A stretch of DNA of 64,000 bases from Escherichia phage JES2013: the sequence record KC690136. One strand, given 5' to 3'. How positions within the stretch are numbered: the stretch's first letter is position 1; every line of letters starts with the position of its first letter. The notes below the pieces were generated by a model that searched no databases, was not told the DNA's origin, and was given only the letters and a program-made list of their open reading frames with translations. Below are positions 17,049 through 52,669 of the stretch, piece by piece. A program made the translations under genes and the position numbers.

Positions 17049-19360
17049 TCACCAAGGTAATTAAAAGCAACGGATGTGAAGTGGCATTCGATCCAGAACG
17101 TTTAAATAAGGCAGCTATTTTCGGTGACGACGGTAACGGCAATTGGTCACACATTGCACTGGATGCATACAAACGACTGTATGATGGATGTACAACCAAA
17201 GAAGTTAACCAAGCTATCATAGACTCCTGTGTTAGCCGTAAAGACGAAGCACATTCCCGTATGGCTGGTCGTGTTCTTATTGGTCAGATTTATAAAGAGG
17301 CTTTTGGAGGGTTTACAAAGATCCCTTCCTTACCATCATTTTACAATACCATGGTTGAGAAAGGGTATTGGGAGGATATGGGATATAGCTTTACCGAGCT
17401 AAACACTTTAGACGCTGTTATTGACCACAGTAAAGATCTCGGTTATGGCTATGCAGTCCTTAAACAGTTTCGCGACAAATACGGGATCAAGGATACTCTT
17501 AAAGACACCTTGTTTGAATCTCCCCAGATGATGTTTATGGGGATAGCAATGGCTGTCATGAAGAATATGCCGAAAGAACGTCGTATCAACGATGTTGTAA
17601 AATTATACACTTATCTGTCCGACTTAAAGATCAATGCCCCAACACCGTACTTAAACGGGCTGCGCACAGGTAAGACAGGGTATGCATCTTGTTGTGTAAT
17701 AAAAGCTGACGATACAGCAAAATCTATTGGTGTGGCACGTGAAGTTGCGTACACAATGACGGTTAACCAAGCAGGTATCGGCTACTATTTATCATCAAGA
17801 TCTGCAGGCGATGGTGTTCGTGGTAACACTATTAAACACATGGGTAAGATTCCATATTATCGAGGTATTGATGCTGGGGTTAAGGAGAACAGACAACAAT
17901 CACGTGGCGGTTCTGCAACAGTATCATTCCTTGCACTAGACCCACAGATTGATGAGCTAATCCGTTTGAGAAACCCTATGACTGTTGCTTCAAAAAGAAT
18001 CAACACCATGGACTACTCTATAGGTATTAACAGGTCGTTTATCAACCGTGTGGCTAAGAATTTAGATTGGATGCTTGTTTCTTATAAGCACGCGCCTCAA
18101 CTGCATGAAGGTATCTTCACCATGTCTATGGAGGAGTTTGATGCAGAGGTTGATCGTATCGCTAAAGATGACAGTATTCCTAAAACATGGATCCGAGCTA
18201 GAGATCTTGCTGTTGAGCTGATCACGCAGCGTACCGAAGTGGGAAGGCTGTACGTATACTGGACAGATGAGATGAATAGACATACACCTTTTAAAGATGT
18301 GATCTATTCAAGTAACCTGTGTGCAGAAATAGCCCTCCCGACAAAAGGCTATTCAGATATGCGTAATATCTTCAAGTACGATGTTGATGATGGTGAGGTT
18401 GCATTGTGCTTCCTGTCATCTCTTGTAGCTGGAAGGGTTACCCCAGAGGAGTATGAGGATGTTGCATACTATACGGTGCTTATGATTGACAATGTTATGG
18501 AAATCATGACATATCCATATGAAAATATGGAGAGCACTGTTAAAAAACGCAGATCCATCGGGGTTGGCCTTACCAATGTTGCACATTTTATTGCCAGCCA
18601 CAAGGTTACTTACGGATCTCCTGAAAGTAAACAGCTTGTTCACGATCTTGCAGAACTTCACAGCTACAGCTTGCATAAGGCAAGTTTACGGTTGGCAAAA
18701 GAGCGTGGTGTCTGCGAGTGGATGCATAAAACAAAATATCCAGAAGGTTGGTTACCAATCGACACCTATAACAAAGAGGTAGATAGCGTGGTGAAAGATC
18801 CTTCTCTTAAACAGGATTGGGAAGGGTTACGTAAAGAAATCATTGAAAATGGTGGGCTACGTAATAGCGTTCTTGAAGCATATATGCCTAATGAAAGCTC
18901 TTCGCTGGCAACAAACACCACTAATGGGGTTTATCCTGTCCGTGAGCACATCATCTTTAAAAAATCGCCACAAGGGCAGGTGCTGTTTATCGTTCCTGAC
19001 TATGATGAGTTGAAAGAGTATTACACCTCGGCTTGGGACGTTGATACTAACGACATGATCGATATGTATGCTGTGATTCAAAAATTCACAGGTCAGGCAA
19101 TCAGCGCGGATTTATACATAGACTACACCAAGTTGAAAGATGGTAAAATTTCAATGAAGGAGCAGCTAGGGTACCTTATCCGTGCCACTAAATTTGGGAT
19201 GAAGACATGGTATTATTTAAACTCTAGGGTTGGTGCTGGTGACTCCTTGGCAGAGGAACTTCATGCCAAGAAACAGGCTGAAGATGAAACCAGAAAGAAC
19301 TACCCTTTGATTGCAGATAGTTCAGTTGAAGATCCGTATTGCGAAAGCTGTGCACTATAA
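17045..19360 (+). CDS. nrdA: Ribonucleoside-diphosphate reductase class Ia alpha subunit
   Basis: 771 aa; ATP-cone-like N-terminus; NLCAEI active-site region; C-terminal CESC; followed by nrdB. Confidence 0.9.
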   Translation: MITKVIKSNGCEVAFDPERLNKAAIFGDDGNGNWSHIALDAYKRLYDGCTTKEVNQAIIDSCVSRKDEAHSRMAGRVLIGQIYKEAFGGFTKIPSLPSFYNTMVEKGYWEDMGYSFTELNTLDAVIDHSKDLGYGYAVLKQFRDKYGIKDTLKDTLFESPQMMFMGIAMAVMKNMPKERRINDVVKLYTYLSDLKINAPTPYLNGLRTGKTGYASCCVIKADDTAKSIGVAREVAYTMTVNQAGIGYYLSSRSAGDGVRGNTIKHMGKIPYYRGIDAGVKENRQQSRGGSATVSFLALDPQIDELIRLRNPMTVASKRINTMDYSIGINRSFINRVAKNLDWMLVSYKHAPQLHEGIFTMSMEEFDAEVDRIAKDDSIPKTWIRARDLAVELITQRTEVGRLYVYWTDEMNRHTPFKDVIYSSNLCAEIALPTKGYSDMRNIFKYDVDDGEVALCFLSSLVAGRVTPEEYEDVAYYTVLMIDNVMEIMTYPYENMESTVKKRRSIGVGLTNVAHFIASHKVTYGSPESKQLVHDLAELHSYSLHKASLRLAKERGVCEWMHKTKYPEGWLPIDTYNKEVDSVVKDPSLKQDWEGLRKEIIENGGLRNSVLEAYMPNESSSLATNTTNGVYPVREHIIFKKSPQGQVLFIVPDYDELKEYYTSAWDVDTNDMIDMYAVIQKFTGQAISADLYIDYTKLKDGKISMKEQLGYLIRATKFGMKTWYYLNSRVGAGDSLAEELHAKKQAEDETRKNYPLIADSSVEDPYCESCAL

Positions 19361-19398
19361 TTTTAAAGGGGCTTCGGCCCCATTTTAGAGGTAGAATA

Positions 19399-20487
19399 AT
19401 GGCTGTATTTAATGCTGAGAACACCGCTCATAAAACTGGTGACTATCCGCTGTTTCTGGGACAGCAAATGGGTATGTACGACTCTATCAACAAAAAATAT
19501 CCACAACTGTTCGAACTGTACAAAAAACAAAAAGAACAAGACTGGGCAGAGGATGAAGTGGATTTGTCGCAATCTATTTCAGATTTTGTAACATGCTCCA
19601 AGTCAACTTATGATGTGATGGTGCAGACCTTGATGTGGCAATGGGAGGCTGATAGCGTTGCGGCAAGATCGATCATCTGCCTCTTTTCACCATTCATCAC
19701 TAATAGTGAGCTTTTCACTCTATTGATGAAACAGTCAGAGATTGAAGTTCTTCACGCACTAACTTACTCAGAGATTGTTAGACAATGCCTCCCCAATGCC
19801 CGTGAGATTATAGAAGAGATTCAGGAAAACCAAAACGTTCTGAGCAGATCTGGCGTTATTGTCAAATACATGCAAGAGCTTGAGGTTATTGGTGCAAAAT
19901 ACCGACTGGATCCTTCTAGTGTTGAAGAAGATATTGTGCGGAAATGCATTCTTAGAGCGCTTTTTGCACTTTTAGCCCTGGAAAGTATTGAGTTTATTGC
20001 AAGTTTTGCATGCACTTTCGCAGTAGCTGAACAGGGTATTTTTGTTCAGGTGGCGCAGCTTGTTCAAAAAATCATGCTTGACGAAATGCTACATTCGAAA
20101 GGTGATTTTGCCATCATTGATATCCTGCTTAATGATCCGGCATGGGAGAAAAGCTTCCTTGAGATAAAAGGGGAGTTAAAAGAGATTCTTGATGAAGTAC
20201 GAACCAAAGAGTACGGTTGGAGTGACTATATTTTCAGCGAAGGAAGAGCGATTATAGGTCTTAACTCACCGTTGCTTAAAGAATGGGTTGACTATAACTG
20301 CTCACCGATTTATGATTACTACGGCATCGACAAAGACTTTGTGCCGCCAACAAAGGACCCTCTACCGTTTATGCAGGTGTGGATGAAACCTTCATTGCAA
20401 CAGACGGCGAACCAAGAAATGTCGAACACTGACTACCGCGTCAACACAACTGTTAATGACGCTGAAGAAGAAATTTGGGAGTTTTAA
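19399..20487 (+). CDS. nrdB: Ribonucleoside-diphosphate reductase class Ia beta subunit
   Basis: Ferritin-like di-iron helices; start refined to ATG after stem-loop GGGGC-ttcg-GCCCC and GAGG SD. Confidence 0.85.
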   Translation: MAVFNAENTAHKTGDYPLFLGQQMGMYDSINKKYPQLFELYKKQKEQDWAEDEVDLSQSISDFVTCSKSTYDVMVQTLMWQWEADSVAARSIICLFSPFITNSELFTLLMKQSEIEVLHALTYSEIVRQCLPNAREIIEEIQENQNVLSRSGVIVKYMQELEVIGAKYRLDPSSVEEDIVRKCILRALFALLALESIEFIASFACTFAVAEQGIFVQVAQLVQKIMLDEMLHSKGDFAIIDILLNDPAWEKSFLEIKGELKEILDEVRTKEYGWSDYIFSEGRAIIGLNSPLLKEWVDYNCSPIYDYYGIDKDFVPPTKDPLPFMQVWMKPSLQQTANQEMSNTDYRVNTTVNDAEEEIWEF

Positions 20488-38702: not shown

Positions 38703-39541
38703 CACACAATTAGCTGCCCGGCTAAAGTGCTGGAAGCACCTATAACACATCTTTCAACTAAATTTCCCACCACAACAATCACTTACCTCCCATACATGAC
38801 TGTTTGCTTGTTTAGTGAGCAGTCATGCCTTGACATTCTTGCCTATCCTGATAAAATTAAGTTCTTCTCTTTTCTTTTACCGAGTAATTCGGGTTTTCTG
38901 TTCTCTTCGGTTTGAAGGGGTATGGAGATACACCTGAGTGAACAGGGTGAACAACCGAACATTTGGCTATGGCATTAGCATGGCGAAGCGGACGGGTGAC
39001 GAAAGAGGGGCCGGAGGACACCAGTCACTGCCATATGGTATATGGGTGATAACCTGAAGAGTCTGAATAAGTGTTTAAGTACCAGTCAGAGGAAAAGGTG
39101 AATGGTAGCCGAAGGGGGAGGGGGGTTTCTTGTATCTTTAATTTGTATATTATGTATACACTTGTAAACCAATCTCATTTGAATTTGTTTACCACACAAA
39201 GTGGATAGAGACAAATATTACCTATTAAACTTGAATTATTTATAGAAAATACCACAACACTACTTAAGTCTTTGATTTTACACACAAATCCTGCAGATAT
39301 TCACCCTCCATATTTAACATACTTGTAACATATTCCATACTCTACCTGCCCGATCAATTCACCCAACTACATCCCCATATTTTCCCTGTCTGTACTACCC
39401 CTGCCCCGCCGGGAGTCCCGTCATATCTGGCTTTCCAGCAAATATCACACCCACAAATATCATTGCCTGAAGAGGGTTTCGTCCCATAATACATGCCTTA
39501 CCTGAAGAGCGCTTCATATACCCCGTAAATTTTTTAATTGA

Positions 39542-39574
39542 CCCCCTCCCCGCCGCCGGAGGGGTCGGCTTTTC
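39542..39574 (+). terminator. Terminator-like hairpin CCCCTCC-ccgccgcc-GGAGGGG + TCGGCTTTT
   Basis: GC-rich stem followed by T tract in gene-free region. Confidence 0.5.
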
Positions 39575-40120
39575 CCACACAGACCTGAAGAGTCAGCCAG
39601 AAATATCTGAATGGACCCAATTCTGCCCTGTTATGAGCCGTAGCGACTGGAGTGCTGCCAGGCGGACGAAATGGGAATACTTCTCATTCTTATAACAATT
39701 CTCAAATATCGAGGCAGTGAGGCAAATTAATAGGTAAGGCCGTTCACATAGTGGCACAACATTTGCAGTCTATCTGATGTGGTTGAATGAGAATACCTAT
39801 CATTGTGAGAATAGTTATCATTACGGGCAATTTAACATAATACCCATTATGCGCACCACTGGCGATACATACAGGGATTGATAACATGAGTTACTGTTTA
39901 CGCATATAACAATTATATTTCTTATCATTTGTGTGGGATATAGTTAGCAGCCGATAGATTAGATATTGACCTGCGGACTTCTGACCGTCTAGACGTCTAA
40001 ACGCCCACACAACAAGGCTTATACATACATCGCTGAATGTAAACATGGCCGCAAAAATGCTACCATACAAGATTGTAAATTTTTCATGCAGCACTTGACA
40101 AAGAGGAGAAAAACTTGTCT

Positions 40121-40162
40121 GACACTTTAGACATACTGGTGACACAATATGACACTTTAGAC
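40121..40162. repeat. Direct repeat GACACTTTAGAC (two copies, 30 bp apart), followed by iterated TGTTTAC/TGTTCAC motifs to about 40360
   Basis: Exact 12-mers at 40121 and 40151; at least eight (A)CTGTTTAC-like motifs in the next 200 bp. Confidence 0.55.
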
Positions 40163-40449
40163 TTAATTGACATGCCTGACTGTTTACGCTGTCACTATTC
40201 GCGCTATTACTATTCACTCCCTTTACTGTTCACGCTCTTACTGTTTACATGCTTAATGGTTTACATGCTTAATAGACTGCATGTCTAATAGTTTACATAG
40301 CTAACTGTTCACATACTTATCATTTACATGATTGACTGTTTACACAGAGATGATAAGCCATGACATTCGTTTGCATGACAATAATTAACAAGATAACAAT
40401 TGACAAGCTAACAGCCAACAAGCTGACAATTAACTTGTTTACAATAGAT

Positions 40450-40615
40450 GACATAATATAAAAGCAGGGCAACTATTAGAAGATCTATAGTTGCCTTGCT
40501 TGTTATGTCATGATTAACTAAATACAAGGCAACTATGATCTGATTAATAGTTTGCAAACAAACTATCACGGGGGTGATGGTTACTGCTTTTATATTATGT
40601 CGCGACTCCGTCGCG
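40450..40615. repeat. Nested inverted repeats: 18-bp arms GACATAATATAAAAGCAG / CTGCTTTTATATTATGTC around palindrome GGCAACTAT-N10-ATAGTTGCC, plus CGCGAC-tcc-GTCGCG
   Basis: Arms at 40450-40467 and 40584-40601 are exact reverse complements; inner palindrome 40468-40495; GGCAACTAT also recurs at about 40517 and 40634. Confidence 0.6.
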
Positions 40616-41295
40616 CCATGCCATTCGTTTGCATAGTTGCCTTATTGTTACAGATAAAATAATTGTATTGTTAATTATTTCTTATCTTTCTATTAGTCAT
40701 CTAATGATTCCAGTCAATATAGTAATGTACAGTAAACATTAGACGACTAAAGATTTATCTGCTTATAATAACTTACCGTGACAATTTCGGACTGTTTACG
40801 AAAAATGTTGGCACCTAAGCTGATTTATGTTATGCAGTTTACACGAATAATTATTTTATGCAGGTATTGACTATTCCATTATTCTATGGTTGGAATAAAT
40901 ACTTAGCAGACTATAGAATGGTGAGCGTACGTAAATTCTGAGATCTGGCGGCTATAGTTATACTCGATTTTTCACGTAGAGCACGCTTTTGTGGTTATGT
41001 AAGTGTATGACTTATAAAGATTTTTAGTTGTTGACAAGACACTGAAGATATGCATCAGGTTAAATTTTGTGCAATAGCTGCATTACGTGCAATTTTGGAA
41101 GGAAAAACGGGTAAAAATAGCCCTGCTACCACACAATGAAAAGTTATGCAATAGTTATTTTACATGTATATTTGTACAGTGTGTGGGGTTGATGGCTCGT
41201 CAATTATTCCACTTGCCAGGTAGGGCCGTTTATGGTAGGGGGAAGATCAGACAAAAAGAAAGGGGCCTAAGCCCCTTGATAATTCAGTTAAAAAA

Positions 41296-41715
41296 TTATA
41301 ATGATTCGTATATTTCAAAAATCCGATTTGCCAGGTCGTTACGGTACCGGAATTTTTCATCACGTTTGATCATAAGATCTTTATAGCCGTACTCTTTAAG
41401 CACTTCATTAACTTTATGGCGGCACACCTTCATATTATCCTGAGCGTCACCAATAAACCTGTTGCTATGGTGCATGGCTTTAATTTCTTCTTCCAGGACC
41501 AGGGCAACTATGCGGACCGGATCAAGCTGATAGGCGGTAACATCAATGCGGCATTGTAAACGGCTTTTTACGTCTGCCACCGGATATACTGCAACCTCTT
41601 CCCCGTCAACATTGACAATAATTAGTTTACCATCGATTTCGAATCCTTTCGCCGCCGGACCGTGACAAAAAGCGTTATCAAAGCTATATGCCGGATTATT
41701 AGATTTAATGTTCAT
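41296..41715 (-). CDS. Hypothetical protein
   Basis: 139-aa ORF; last gene of leftward block. Confidence 0.5.
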   Translation of the reverse strand: MNIKSNNPAYSFDNAFCHGPAAKGFEIDGKLIIVNVDGEEVAVYPVADVKSRLQCRIDVTAYQLDPVRIVALVLEEEIKAMHHSNRFIGDAQDNMKVCRHKVNEVLKEYGYKDLMIKRDEKFRYRNDLANRIFEIYESL

Positions 41716-42184: not shown

Positions 42185-42457
42185 TTACTTATGGCGGCAG
42201 AATTCAAGCGTTTTTAATTGATAATCTTCCTCAGCCTGGAGTACGACCGCCTCGATCATTTCGTTGGCATTGTTAAAGCCATAACCTTTAGCGAAATCAT
42301 CCGCGCCACCTTCGTGATCATGTTCTGCGTTCATCGCTTCCACAAAATGGAATTCCAAATTGTTGAGGTAGGGGCTTGATGTTCCGTCCTCTTTTTCGAT
42401 GAGATCCCAAATAGCATTAAAACGTGATTCTACTTCTTGATTAATCCAGCTTGACAC
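42185..42457 (-). CDS. Hypothetical acidic protein
   Basis: 90-aa ORF. Confidence 0.5.
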   Translation of the reverse strand: MSSWINQEVESRFNAIWDLIEKEDGTSSPYLNNLEFHFVEAMNAEHDHEGGADDFAKGYGFNNANEMIEAVVLQAEEDYQLKTLEFCRHK

Positions 42458-44619: not shown

Positions 44620-44675
44620 GATGATTTGCCTCTCTTTATTTTCATAATTGGGGGGCCTTTTCGGCCCCGCCAGGT

Positions 44676-44960
44676 TTATTTATTGATAGCGTGCAGCGGG
44701 AAAGGTACGCCAGGTTGATAGATAACCTTTACAACCTCATCAGGACAAAAGAAGTTGCAGAACTCACCGCAATAGGCCTCATCCTCTTTCAACTCTTCAT
44801 CAACATACTCAAAAAAGTAGTCGATGCTTGGATAATCTTGACCAGGGTTATAATCAACCATAGTGAGGACCAGTTCAAGATCATTGCGGATGATATGCAT
44901 ACCAGCTTTTAAATACTTCGCTTCCATTTTTACTACATCGCCAGCGGTAACAATAGCCAT
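44676..44960 (-). CDS. Hypothetical acidic protein
   Basis: Start refined to ATG after AGGAG (MAIVTAGD). Confidence 0.45.
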   Translation of the reverse strand: MAIVTAGDVVKMEAKYLKAGMHIIRNDLELVLTMVDYNPGQDYPSIDYFFEYVDEELKEDEAYCGEFCNFFCPDEVVKVIYQPGVPFPLHAINK

Positions 44961-51161: not shown

Positions 51162-51323
51162 TCAACCATTAGTTAAAATTATTTTTGCCCCTGCCAGGTT
51201 AACCATCATTTTTTCGTACTCTTCTTTATGTTCCAACGCTCCCGCCATAGCCTTTTCAACCAGGGCGATAGCCTCAGCGTCATTAATAGCTACATTTTCC
51301 AGGGGGATCATATTACCTTTCAT
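51162..51323 (-). CDS. Hypothetical small protein (53 aa)
   Basis: sORF MKGNMIPLENVAINDAEAIALVEKAMAGALEHKEEYEKMMVNLAGAKIILTNG; strong SD GGGGAGG; preferred over antisense track ORF 51109..51360. Confidence 0.4.
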   Translation of the reverse strand: MKGNMIPLENVAINDAEAIALVEKAMAGALEHKEEYEKMMVNLAGAKIILTNG

Positions 51324-51590
51324 TTTTGTACCTCCCCTTCAATTGTTACCTATCCTATAGCATAGGCCCACCAGGTTTACAAGCCTTCATTCTCTCCTGC
51401 CTGGTCAGTTAGGTCCTGCCAGGCTGGCCCCGCCAGGTTGCAGCGGTTAGCGCATCAGGTTAGAAAAATTTTTTGAAAAGTGTTGACAGCGGCCCCGCCA
51501 GGTGGCACAATATACCTATCGAAAGGACGGCAGGCACCGGTGACGGGGGAGGCAACCACCGGGGATGGACGCTGCATAAAATGAGAACGG

Positions 51591-51601
51591 TTATCATTAT
51601 C
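51591..51601. promoter_or_regulatory. Fur-box-like motif TTATCATTATC (module 1)
   Basis: Exact 11-mer of the reverse complement of E. coli Fur consensus GATAATGATAATCATTATC. Confidence 0.3.
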
Positions 51602-51718
51602 ATTTAAAAATTTATGCAAAAAATCCTTGCTTTCTTTGTCCTGTGTGATACTATAATAACAAGCCGGGGCAACAGGGGCCGGGAGACAATCACCGGGCCT
51701 GCCCGTTATTCTGCAAAC

Positions 51719-51735
51719 GAGAATGATTATCATTC
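51719..51735. promoter_or_regulatory. Fur-box-like 7-1-7 palindrome GAGAATGATTATCATTC (module 2)
   Basis: GAATGAT-T-ATCATTC perfect inverted repeat; contains AATGATTATCATT, an exact 13-mer of the Fur consensus reverse complement. Confidence 0.3.
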
Positions 51736-51864
51736 AAAATTCTAAATGAGAACTCCTCGCATTTAATAAATTTAATTAGCATGCTAATTACCCTCCGTAA
51801 CAATTTCCTATAAAACAGTATCCCATAAAATATTTCCATATAGAAATTTTAAAAATCCATTTCT

Positions 51865-52027
51865 GAAAACGAAAAATCGATTTCGTCCCCAAAAATTTCA
51901 GGTCGAGATCCGGAACGATTTCCAGAAAATCCGATTTAGAAAACGAAAAACAGATCGAGTACTGAGAAATTTATCGAGAAAAATTTTCAGAAAATTCAAT
52001 CTTTGAAACGAAAAACAGATCGAGTAC
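51865..52027. repeat. Direct repeats GAAA(A)CGAAAAACAGATCGAGTAC (two near-exact copies plus one degenerate)
   Basis: Copies at 51939-51962 and 52005-52027; degenerate copy 51865-51880; AAATCCATTTTAG also repeated nearby. Confidence 0.55.
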
Positions 52028-52339
52028 CTGGAAAGCTGCACTGCAACTTCAAGATAGTGGTTAGATTATTACCATAAAAGGTCAAGGGTAAGTGGAGGAA
52101 GTTCTAGTAGAAGGATGTGAGCATGTGTGGGAAATCTATAATGGTGGCCTGGAATATGGTGCAAACGATAGGATGAGTTATTCAGCTTGTCGCGCCTACT
52201 CTGAAAAATCCATTTTAGTTTTCGATCCATTTTCTGATTTTCTAAGAATTTTAAAATATCCAGCCCGGTGAAATATCAAAAGGAGGAAATCCATTTTAGA
52301 AATCCCCCTTATACTTGATATGCCAGGAATTTTCAAGTA

Positions 52340-52669
52340 TCAGTTGTCTTTGTTTTTAGGTTTGTACATGCGCAGAGGTATGGTCTTTGTAACATTCCAT
52401 TTCCTCAACCCTTCCCAGCTCCAGTTGTGGGCGTGGTATCCGGTTATGCATGCACTACTGGAGTGATCGTAAGCATAAGAGAACGCTAAGCGCACCAGGT
52501 GGGGCCAGTCCTTCCATGGTTGTGGACCGTAAGCTTTTCTCCAACACCGACACAAACTAAATGTCTCAAGGATAGGAAGGATAACAAACCCATACACTGT
52601 CACCAAAATAGTCAGTGCAATGATTGTCAGGAACACATACCCTGCAGTTGAAATGATGATCTCTGTCAT
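52340..52669 (-). CDS. Membrane protein
   Basis: N-terminal hydrophobic stretch TAGYVFLTIIALTILVTVYGFVILPIL. Confidence 0.45.
   Translation of the reverse strand: MTEIIISTAGYVFLTIIALTILVTVYGFVILPILETFSLCRCWRKAYGPQPWKDWPHLVRLAFSYAYDHSSSACITGYHAHNWSWEGLRKWNVTKTIPLRMYKPKNKDN

Follow-up and report, generated by a model that had tools for sequence, protein, structure and literature searches.

The primary origin of phage T7 carries the tandem promoters 1.1A and 1.1B followed by an AT-rich region, and T4 oriF and oriG, like the ColE1 origin, are R-loop origins. Closer to the DNA considered here is pseudo-ToxI of the rV5-like phage phiTE, an expressed, non-coding repeat locus (PMC3475682) and the only non-coding RNA locus known from the subfamily that includes the rV5-like phages. 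Here we describe a gene-free island of about 1 kb (positions 51324-52339) in a 64,000-nucleotide stretch of Escherichia phage JES2013 (sequence record KC690136; hereafter the window), the genome of a Vequintavirus (rV5-like myovirus). Judged by its sequence, the island is a conserved, multi-part, non-coding cis-acting control region and not a gene; it is predicted to be transcribed from the plus strand and contains Fur-type sites. Together with a related region at 39-41 kb, it is the most conserved non-coding DNA met in this analysis.

A sequence-only reading of this DNA had marked a 1-kb non-coding island with duplicated promoter-linked modules and direct repeats, and the absence of genes is borne out, as 51324-52339 holds no conserved open reading frame (ORF). 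The only sizeable plus-strand ORF (52092-52271, 59 amino acids) falls in a variable segment and was rejected as a gene because of 1-2-nt indels among Vequintaviruses. The minus-strand ORFs annotated in relatives (rV5 ORF198/199 and FFH2 ORF179-181) were likewise rejected, lying in indel-bearing segments or across promoters and modules. The nucleotides of 51300-52400 match E. coli O157 typing phage 4 at 100% identity and some 110 further Vequintaviruses at 88-98%, and the rV5 counterpart of the island lies at about 116612-117667. When seven Vequintaviruses were compared, the promoters, modules, palindromes, repeat units, and right-end block proved nearly invariant.

Beyond the genus, a sensitive search aligned only about 60-160 nt around module 2 and the palindrome, at 72-88% identity, with matches in Phapecoctavirus (ESCO5), Mydovirus (KpS8, BIS47), Seunavirus (4MG, SSE121), Certrevirus (CR3, KaOmega), and Henunavirus (Hena1). 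Each of those genera nonetheless keeps the same layout in a gene-free gap of 0.7-1.3 kb that interrupts the minus-strand genes: a small plus-strand ORF (not in all), P1, module 1, P2, module 2, one to four palindromes, a third promoter in some genera, three direct repeats, and an iteron block of AAATATCA. Conservation among relatives, on which the sequence-only reading had staked its proposal, extends to the island layout in several genera, and the layout is maintained over Vequintavirinae and Stephanstirmvirinae despite divergence of most of the sequence. Scans of metagenomes and IMG/VR returned further variants but no new context. Among 185,579 bacterial genomes (GTDB), the pattern was essentially absent, also from prophages, the one match, in a Clostridium contig, probably being due to chance.

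The two tandem plus-strand promoters proposed earlier, antisense to the flanking genes, hold up as predicted sigma-70 promoters of the extended -10 type, with both neighbors on the minus strand. P1 scored 10/12 matches with the TG present, is invariant in the 7 Vequintaviruses, and has an equivalent in other genera. P2 falls slightly under the threshold of the promoter scan and was read from the sequence; its TTG and TAnnnT are kept in all genera aligned. Seunavirus and Mydovirus have a third promoter, P3. The -35 and -10 elements are conserved in at least five genera, as is module 2. No intrinsic terminator was found on the plus strand between 50500 and 53000, and none after either module, so transcripts from P1 and P2 would run into the repeats. 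The nucleotide skews also invert inside the island (plus-strand AT skew up to +0.29 and GC skew up to +0.32, with negative values in the flanks), which is what plus-strand transcription of the island would predict.

A conserved G-rich module follows each promoter at about +30 to +50, with a core of CCGG-AGRMAAnYCA-CCGG that sits within a possible longer stem. All strings that the sequence-only reading had quoted for its two related modules are present: CAACCACCGGGG at 51556 and CAATCACCGGGC at 51690, and, at the shared AT-rich ends, GAGAACGGTTATCATT at 51583 and GAGAATGATTATCATT at 51719. The two modules share GGGAG(G/A)CAA(C/T)CACCGGG and a 33-nt AT-rich end. A covariance model, R1, built from module 2 of Certrevirus, matched module 2 of the window at 51658-51734 with 53.6 bits and module 1 weakly at 51531-51598 with 19.5 bits. 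A third copy, module 3, was found through the exact 15-mer GGAGACAATCACCGG and is also present in rV5. It lies in sense orientation between two small genes and is directly followed by a second promoter and then the gene 42457..42185. The antisense placement noted earlier thus stands for P1, P2, and their modules but not as a general trait of the module. In four other lineages the Certrevirus-based model likewise picked up an extra module copy, which lies 7-9 kb away from the island, is on the opposite strand, and has a promoter and a Fur-like box in each case. The module is not a general leader of early promoters, as just 3 of the window's 134 promoter-like sites are followed by it (two flagged by the scan, plus P2, which is under the scan threshold).

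The AT-rich module ends are better read as protein sites of the Fur-box type than as RNA. Against the 19-bp Fur consensus GATAATGATAATCATTATC, box 1 (51583) matches at 16/19 positions (17/19 in rV5) and box 2 (51719) at 15/19, and each half-site of the palindrome consensus AATGAGAATnATTCTCATT has one position that departs from the Fur 7-1-7 core TGATAATnATTATCA. The motif occurs seven times in the 64 kb as raw matches (six after merging), compared with 0.24-0.27 expected from shuffles, and every occurrence lies in one of two non-coding regions. Arrays of 2-4 boxes with 29-bp spacing are found in ESCO5, KaOmega, CR3, KpS8, 4MG, and rV5, with box starts at 1601/1630/1659/1688 in ESCO5 and at 1538/1567/1596 in both CR3 and KaOmega; in the island arrays, the box proximal to module 2 matches the consensus at 14-17/19 positions and the distal copies at 10-15/19. 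The exact 29-bp period is made up of a 19-bp palindrome and a 10-bp spacer CAAnAAnCTA (loci L003, L005, L009, L004, and L006). The half-sites vary independently and without compensation, so the boxes behave as protein sites, and an RNA hairpin was rejected on that ground. On sequence, then, the palindromes are Fur-box-type sites. They lie at about +60 to +90 after P1 and P2 and about 20-45 bp before the next -35; because they overlap no -35 or -10 element, they are not classical repressor operators for these promoters.

When the boxes of 4MG were compared with E. coli genomes, the only sites matched were in lambdoid prophages, between the lysis genes and the small terminase gene. The 4MG box is identical to a prophage variant at 22/22 nt, and its central 16 nt, TGATAATGATTATCAT, are those of the nohA site of K-12, from which window box 2 differs at 2 positions. 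The nohA Fur site was reported at 22.3 bits and confirmed by gel shift by Chen et al. (PMC2189734). Its coordinate in U00096.2, 1634624, with an offset of +1976, falls on the exact center of GATGATAATCATTATCAC in NC_000913.3, and the K-12 gap that holds it is the lambda-type cos region of the prophage Qin, GATGATAATCATTATCAC-TTTAC-GGGTCCT(cosQ)...ACG^GGGCGGCGACCT. We know of no role assigned to Fur at cos. The nohA Fur palindrome (L054 3593-3610) is 13 nt from cosQ and is 99% conserved in lambda, HK629/630, and DE3.

The downstream direct repeats reported earlier are real, with GAAAACGAAAAACAGATCGAGTAC at 51939 and, with 2 mismatches, at 52004, whereas shuffles give 0. They are parts of three 62-nt units that are 61-77% identical to one another. 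Exactly three units, 62-67 nt long and spaced by 63-78 nt, are also present in 4MG, SSE121, CR3, and Hena1. A CRISPR-like mini-array was considered and discarded: the identity between units is too low, at 61-77%, and the "spacers" are repeats in their own right. Upstream of the repeats, an 18-bp palindrome is followed by DNA of 20-30% G+C with an excess of C over G to about 51860, the minimum of 20% G+C being reached at about 51797-51860. Runs of AAATATCA also close the island in 4MG, SSE121, CR3, and KaOmega. The coordinates of all these features are collected in Table 1.

Table 1. Positions in the window of the island's features and of related elements; promoters, modules, and boxes are predictions.
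Feature	Position	Strand	Description
Four Fur-type boxes	39670-39929		inside the second non-coding region
Module 3	~42650-42540	-	terminator-like hairpin overlapping TTGCAA-N16-TATACT, then ACGGCAGGCACCTGGCGACGGGGGGAGACAATCACCGGGCCTGCCTGTCAT
GGCCC(C/A)(G/C)CCAGGT copies	51363, 51412, 51426, 51491 (zone 51363-51507)	+	two repeat families
P1	51483-51511	+	TTGACA 51483-51488, 17-nt spacer, CACAAT 51506-51511, extended -10 TG, upstream A/T tract
Module 1	51517-51580	+	G-rich leader ACGGCAGGCACCGGTGACGGGGGAGGCAACCACCGGGG...; paralogue of modules 2 and 3; near-invariant in the genus
Fur-type box 1	51580-51604		two overlapping 19-mers with 6-bp offset, AATGAGAACGGTTATCATT and AACGGTTATCATTATCATT
P2	51627-51654	+	TTGCTT 51627-51632, 16-nt spacer, TACTAT 51649-51654, extended -10 TG, upstream A/T tract
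Module 2	51658-51715	+	possible outer stem around 4-bp hairpin CCGG/CCGG, conserved loop GAGACAATCA
Fur-type box 2	51716-51763		AACGAGAATGATTATCATT, with perfect palindrome GAATGAT-T-ATCATTC; degenerate third box +29 bp, 51745-51763
Palindrome	51773-51790		perfect, 18 bp, TAATTAGCA/TGCTAATTA; conserved in the genus
Direct repeats	51834-51895, 51908-51969, 51973-52034	+	each an A/T tract, AGAAAATCC, GAAAACGAAAAA(C)AGATCGAGTAC
Variable spacer	52035-52195		purine-rich; 1-2-nt indels among close relatives; the sole poorly conserved part of the island
Right-end block	52196-52339	+	AAATCCATTTTAG at ~52205 and ~52287; AAATATCM pair at 52254 and 52271; conserved

The genes around the island are small and all on the minus strand, and the left neighbor starts at 51323. 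The zone between this start and P1 is a divergent-promoter zone occupied by copies of a GC-rich motif, which gave 5 matches at no more than 2 mismatches compared with 0.53 expected; the copy at 51491 makes up the spacer of P1. Promoter spacers in the relatives are likewise GC-rich and contain CCNGG. Every copy of the motif contains a Dcm site (CCWGG), and further GC-rich copies with CCAGG lie inside the flanking genes just beyond the island (51187-51199 and 52494-52506). An exact copy of GGCCCCGCCAGGT at 44640-44690 forms the 3' half of a GGGGCC-TTTTC-GGCCCC hairpin that is followed by T-rich sequence on the plus strand; it lies inside a minus-strand gene block and may terminate antisense transcripts.

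Some relatives add to this plan. Ahead of P1, Mydovirus, Seunavirus, and Phapecoctavirus have a small plus-strand ORF with its own promoter (L004 1066-1257, L006 1067-1258, L003 1129-1341, and L007 ~1097-1280), which is absent from Vequintavirus, Certrevirus, and Henunavirus. Its product is a DUF7170 protein (63 amino acids) in KpS8 and an unrelated 70-amino-acid protein in ESCO5. Module 1 of the relatives has an invariant GCCGGTAG that resembles CGGTAG, the core of the RfaH-recruiting ops element, and the invariant GGATCGCCGGTAG in module 1 of L004-L009, L011, L012, and L014 contains CGGTAG; the motif is absent from the modules of the window. Module 3 of the window differs from that of rV5 by a CC/GG dinucleotide in the 3' arm, and this difference shifts the register of its long stem (ACGGCAGGC/GCCTGCCTGT vs. 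GGCAGGCACC/GGTGCCTGTC).

A second, larger non-coding region lies at 39021-41296, where blocks of plus- and minus-strand genes converge. Its rV5 equivalent, 104014-106617, is the gray "non-coding" box of the rV5 paper (PMC3606486). The box, module, and AAATATCA motifs of the island recur only in or beside this region. It also has CCTGAAGAG three or four times, a close pair of AAATATCA at 39440/39455, and, at 40166-40350, arrays in which ACTGTTTACATGCTTA-like repeats follow one another with a period of 16/31 nt. For the Mydovirus KPP-1, a 514-bp direct terminal repeat has been reported at 116316-116829 (PMC9862379). That repeat falls in the counterpart of the second region, about 8 kb from the KPP-1 island, and the counterpart contains at least 5 boxes and a unit resembling a promoter plus module. 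The position of the KPP-1 repeat makes the second region, and not the island, the likely terminal or packaging region; by this analogy, 39021-41296 is probably a terminal-repeat or packaging region.

What might such an island do? The label "regulatory hub" given to it by the sequence-only reading is a fair one. We propose that the island is a transcription-driven, Fur-connected cis-acting site that is most likely origin-like, a reading to which we would give roughly three chances in ten. It is prompted by the resemblance of the tandem promoters, G-rich transcript, AT-rich region, and repeats to origins activated by transcription through a primer or R-loop. Starting at P1 and P2, and in some genera also at P3, host RNA polymerase would pass through the G-rich leaders and enter the AT-rich repeat array; Fur-Fe2+ on the box array would gate or shape this transcription, and a protein of the phage or of the host would bind the repeats. 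The second region, which shares box, module, and iteron motifs, could then be a related terminal or secondary site. As an origin of this kind would have it, the direct repeats adjoin an AT-rich stretch, here and in four other genera, and the predicted promoters aim into the AT-rich region with no terminator before the repeats.

Several observations weigh against an origin. Origin activity is predicted from the architecture, and Fur binding to the boxes is putative. The island contains no conserved DnaA box (TTWTNCACA) and no IHF consensus (WATCAANNNNTTR), and GATC is not enriched in it (4/kb, vs. 5.9/kb in the window). No initiator gene adjoins the island, and no function could be assigned to the flanking proteins. 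Module 3 is an mRNA leader before genes and would be superfluous for an origin, and the placement of the boxes off the -35 and -10 elements is unlike that of classical Fur operators. Skew analysis of rV5 did not place an origin and found switches only where the direction of transcription changes (PMC3606486).

The features that suggest transcription through the island are open to other explanations. P1 and P2 could yield structured leader RNAs, modules 1 and 2, whose activity lies in the RNA itself, the conserved loop GAGACAAUCA being its functional face. They could work in trans, as small RNAs released by Rho-dependent termination or by processing, or in cis on the transcribing polymerase or the transcript, for example as put/nut-like antitermination elements, a 5' stabilizer, or an RNase III site. 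Such a non-coding RNA locus seems to us only slightly less likely than an origin. Each module copy stands at a fixed distance after its own promoter (3 of 3 in the window, and all in the relatives), module 3 is a leader in sense orientation, and the C-rich, G-poor stretch after the boxes could be a Rho loading site. In a possible 8-bp outer stem, the wobbles read as G-T on the module strand but would be C-A mismatches if the opposite strand were the RNA; the pair that closes the inner hairpin is seen as CG (23), GC (4), UA (1), and UG (1); 88% of cells pair, compared with 38-50% in slid controls; and a 19-pair consensus, 3 of its pairs compensated, was obtained for module 1 of the other genera. 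The structural checks are less favorable. Single-sequence folding is unremarkable (z -0.06 and -2.18). Double changes affect 3 of 12 pairs, but the covariation score of 0.175 does not exceed the 0.193 of a control slid by +3, in an alignment that had been fitted to the proposed structure. RNAalifold on an unbiased MAFFT alignment of module 2 yielded the palindrome alone, and the outer stem is broken in some variants (L026, L038, and the A.C class). Rfam 15 gave no match in the window at E<=1 and, in 7 relatives at E<=5, only one chance microRNA match; the 64-kb window also holds no tRNA or tmRNA gene. The paired small RNAs suggested by the sequence-only reading are not supported as discrete species either: they have their own promoters but no terminator or U-tail, the module stems being followed by A-rich sequence, and no Rfam family. 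An RNA role of the modules is thus plausible but unproven, and it would leave the Fur boxes and the three long repeats unexplained. The head-on arrangement itself might be what matters. Here the strong promoters P1 and P2 would fire against the long minus-strand early and replication unit and, with Fur as a roadblock, either shield the small early genes downstream from read-through or time their expression by the iron status of the host. The rV5 paper proposes one long leftward unit, genes 10-1-238-164, to which the neighbors of the island belong (PMC3606486); the island interrupts this unit. The promoters are antisense to both neighbors, a terminator-like hairpin lies on the minus strand at 51896-51859, and each downstream gene has its own predicted promoter. 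Such a boundary or antisense switch, however, needs no conserved modules, no three 65-75-bp repeats, and no 1-kb span, and module 3 is co-directional with its genes; we consider it unlikely.

The boxes and the presumed genome ends invite two further explanations. Box arrays on high-copy phage DNA could titrate Fur and so de-repress iron uptake and other functions under Fur control (serving, for example, ribonucleotide reductase or affecting TonB-dependent receptors). Each genome has at least 6 to 10 Fur-type boxes, concentrated in non-coding DNA. The boxes are conserved in phages whose hosts (Escherichia, Klebsiella, Salmonella, Cronobacter, and Erwinia) share Fur, and the regular 29-bp arrays suggest cooperative coating. 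Fur is abundant, however, at thousands of copies per cell, and the fixed position of a box right after each module points to a local role, so a decoy seems distinctly improbable. The same boxes recall DNA packaging, since a Fur-type box also adjoins lambda cosQ. The island could accordingly be a packaging or terminal site (of the cos, pac, or direct-terminal-repeat kind): lambda-type phages have the box beside cosQ/cosN, module 2 has the 8-mer ATCACCGG in common with the lambda cosN-cosQ spacer, and the first or last base of several GenBank records falls no more than about 2 kb away from it. Outside the box, the similarity to cos is not significant (p ~0.1 for module 2 by local alignment), and homology to lambda cosN/cosQ was set aside because only the Fur-type box is significant. 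A 15-nt match of AAGGYGGATCGCCGG between module 1 of relatives and one prophage cos may be due to chance (p ~0.001 before correction for 27 tests). Vequintaviruses and phiTE have moreover been reported as circularly permuted, and the island was rejected as a genome terminus because the KPP-1 terminal repeat lies in the other non-coding region; we judge a packaging site very improbable.

Should the boxes bind Fur, a phage family that is strictly lytic would be coupled to the iron status of its host, which would matter for phage performance in the iron-limited gut, and the long-known, unexplained Fur site beside lambda cos would acquire meaning. If the modules act as RNA, they would form an uncatalogued family. 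A broader and rather speculative proposal, to which we lend little credence, joins these points: Fur may have been recruited by the virulent rV5-like phages and, independently, by lambda-type cos regions, to gate cis-acting DNA sites or to serve there as a structural protein. Box arrays of 29-bp period stand between tandem promoters with leader modules and an iteron block; replication or the processing of chromosome ends would be switched by Fur-Fe2+ or built on it, and the module would constitute a novel class of cis-acting leader RNA. Isolated widely, rV5-like phages are candidates for therapy and biocontrol, and the island offers small, concrete experimental targets.

Two points on sequence records are worth recording. 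The best database match, KP869102.1, is a "partial genome" and lacks collinearity with the window (38900-41200 of the window corresponds to 17500-19800 of the record, and 51300 to 134045). Part of the region is present in it twice, and its annotation cannot be carried over by a simple offset. In addition, 16-19 unannotated MG0656xx "Campylobacter phage" records, which give C. jejuni as host, match E. coli Vequintaviruses at 93-97% identity in both non-coding regions, and their host label looks doubtful.

The island, the modules, and the Fur-type boxes are not described in the rV5 paper or in the literature searched, which contained nothing relevant on rV5-like transcriptomes, small RNAs, or Fur sites. 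Pseudo-ToxI of phiTE is also a non-coding, repeat-containing locus of the same subfamily, but its repeats are ToxI-like and 36 nt long, and it lacks the module, the box, and the GATCGAG repeat; identity of the island with this type III antitoxin-like locus was rejected, as it is another locus and the units of the island are 62-75 nt long and 61-77% identical compared with nearly identical units of about 36 nt. With HK022 put and lambda nut, the modules share the form of a short structured element right after early promoters, in several copies and with no terminator of its own. They differ in that no sequence relation is shown, no Rfam match was obtained, structural support is weak, and 2 of 3 copies stand before no gene. 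The boxes share with the E. coli Fur operator the 19-bp 9-1-9 palindrome, GATAAT-type hexamers, matches at 15-17/19 positions, and overlapping sites with a 6-bp offset. Unlike that operator, they sit off the -35 and -10 elements, form 29-bp arrays, and lie in the DNA of a virulent phage with putative binding, and many copies have a G where the Fur consensus has a T (TGAGAAT).

The island can also be compared, part by part, with origins. It shares with the T7 primary origin, T4 oriF/oriG, and ColE1 the tandem promoters that feed an AT-rich segment and the G-rich leader, and its partner region near the presumed genome ends can be likened to T7 phiOL/phiOR. Unlike in those origins, the promoters are of the host sigma-70 type and oriented against their neighbors, and Fur-type boxes and three long repeats are added. 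Iteron origins such as lambda ori, P1 oriR, SPP1 oriL/oriR, and P4 ori/crr likewise have direct repeats beside an AT-rich stretch, and P4 ori/crr and SPP1 oriL/oriR also consist of two separate non-coding regions with short motifs in common. Their repeats are about 20 bp long, whereas the unit of the island is 62-75 bp, present in three copies of 61-77% identity, with no DnaA boxes and no known initiator gene adjacent. Each part of the island belongs to a known kind; what is new is the composite and the fact that it is conserved.

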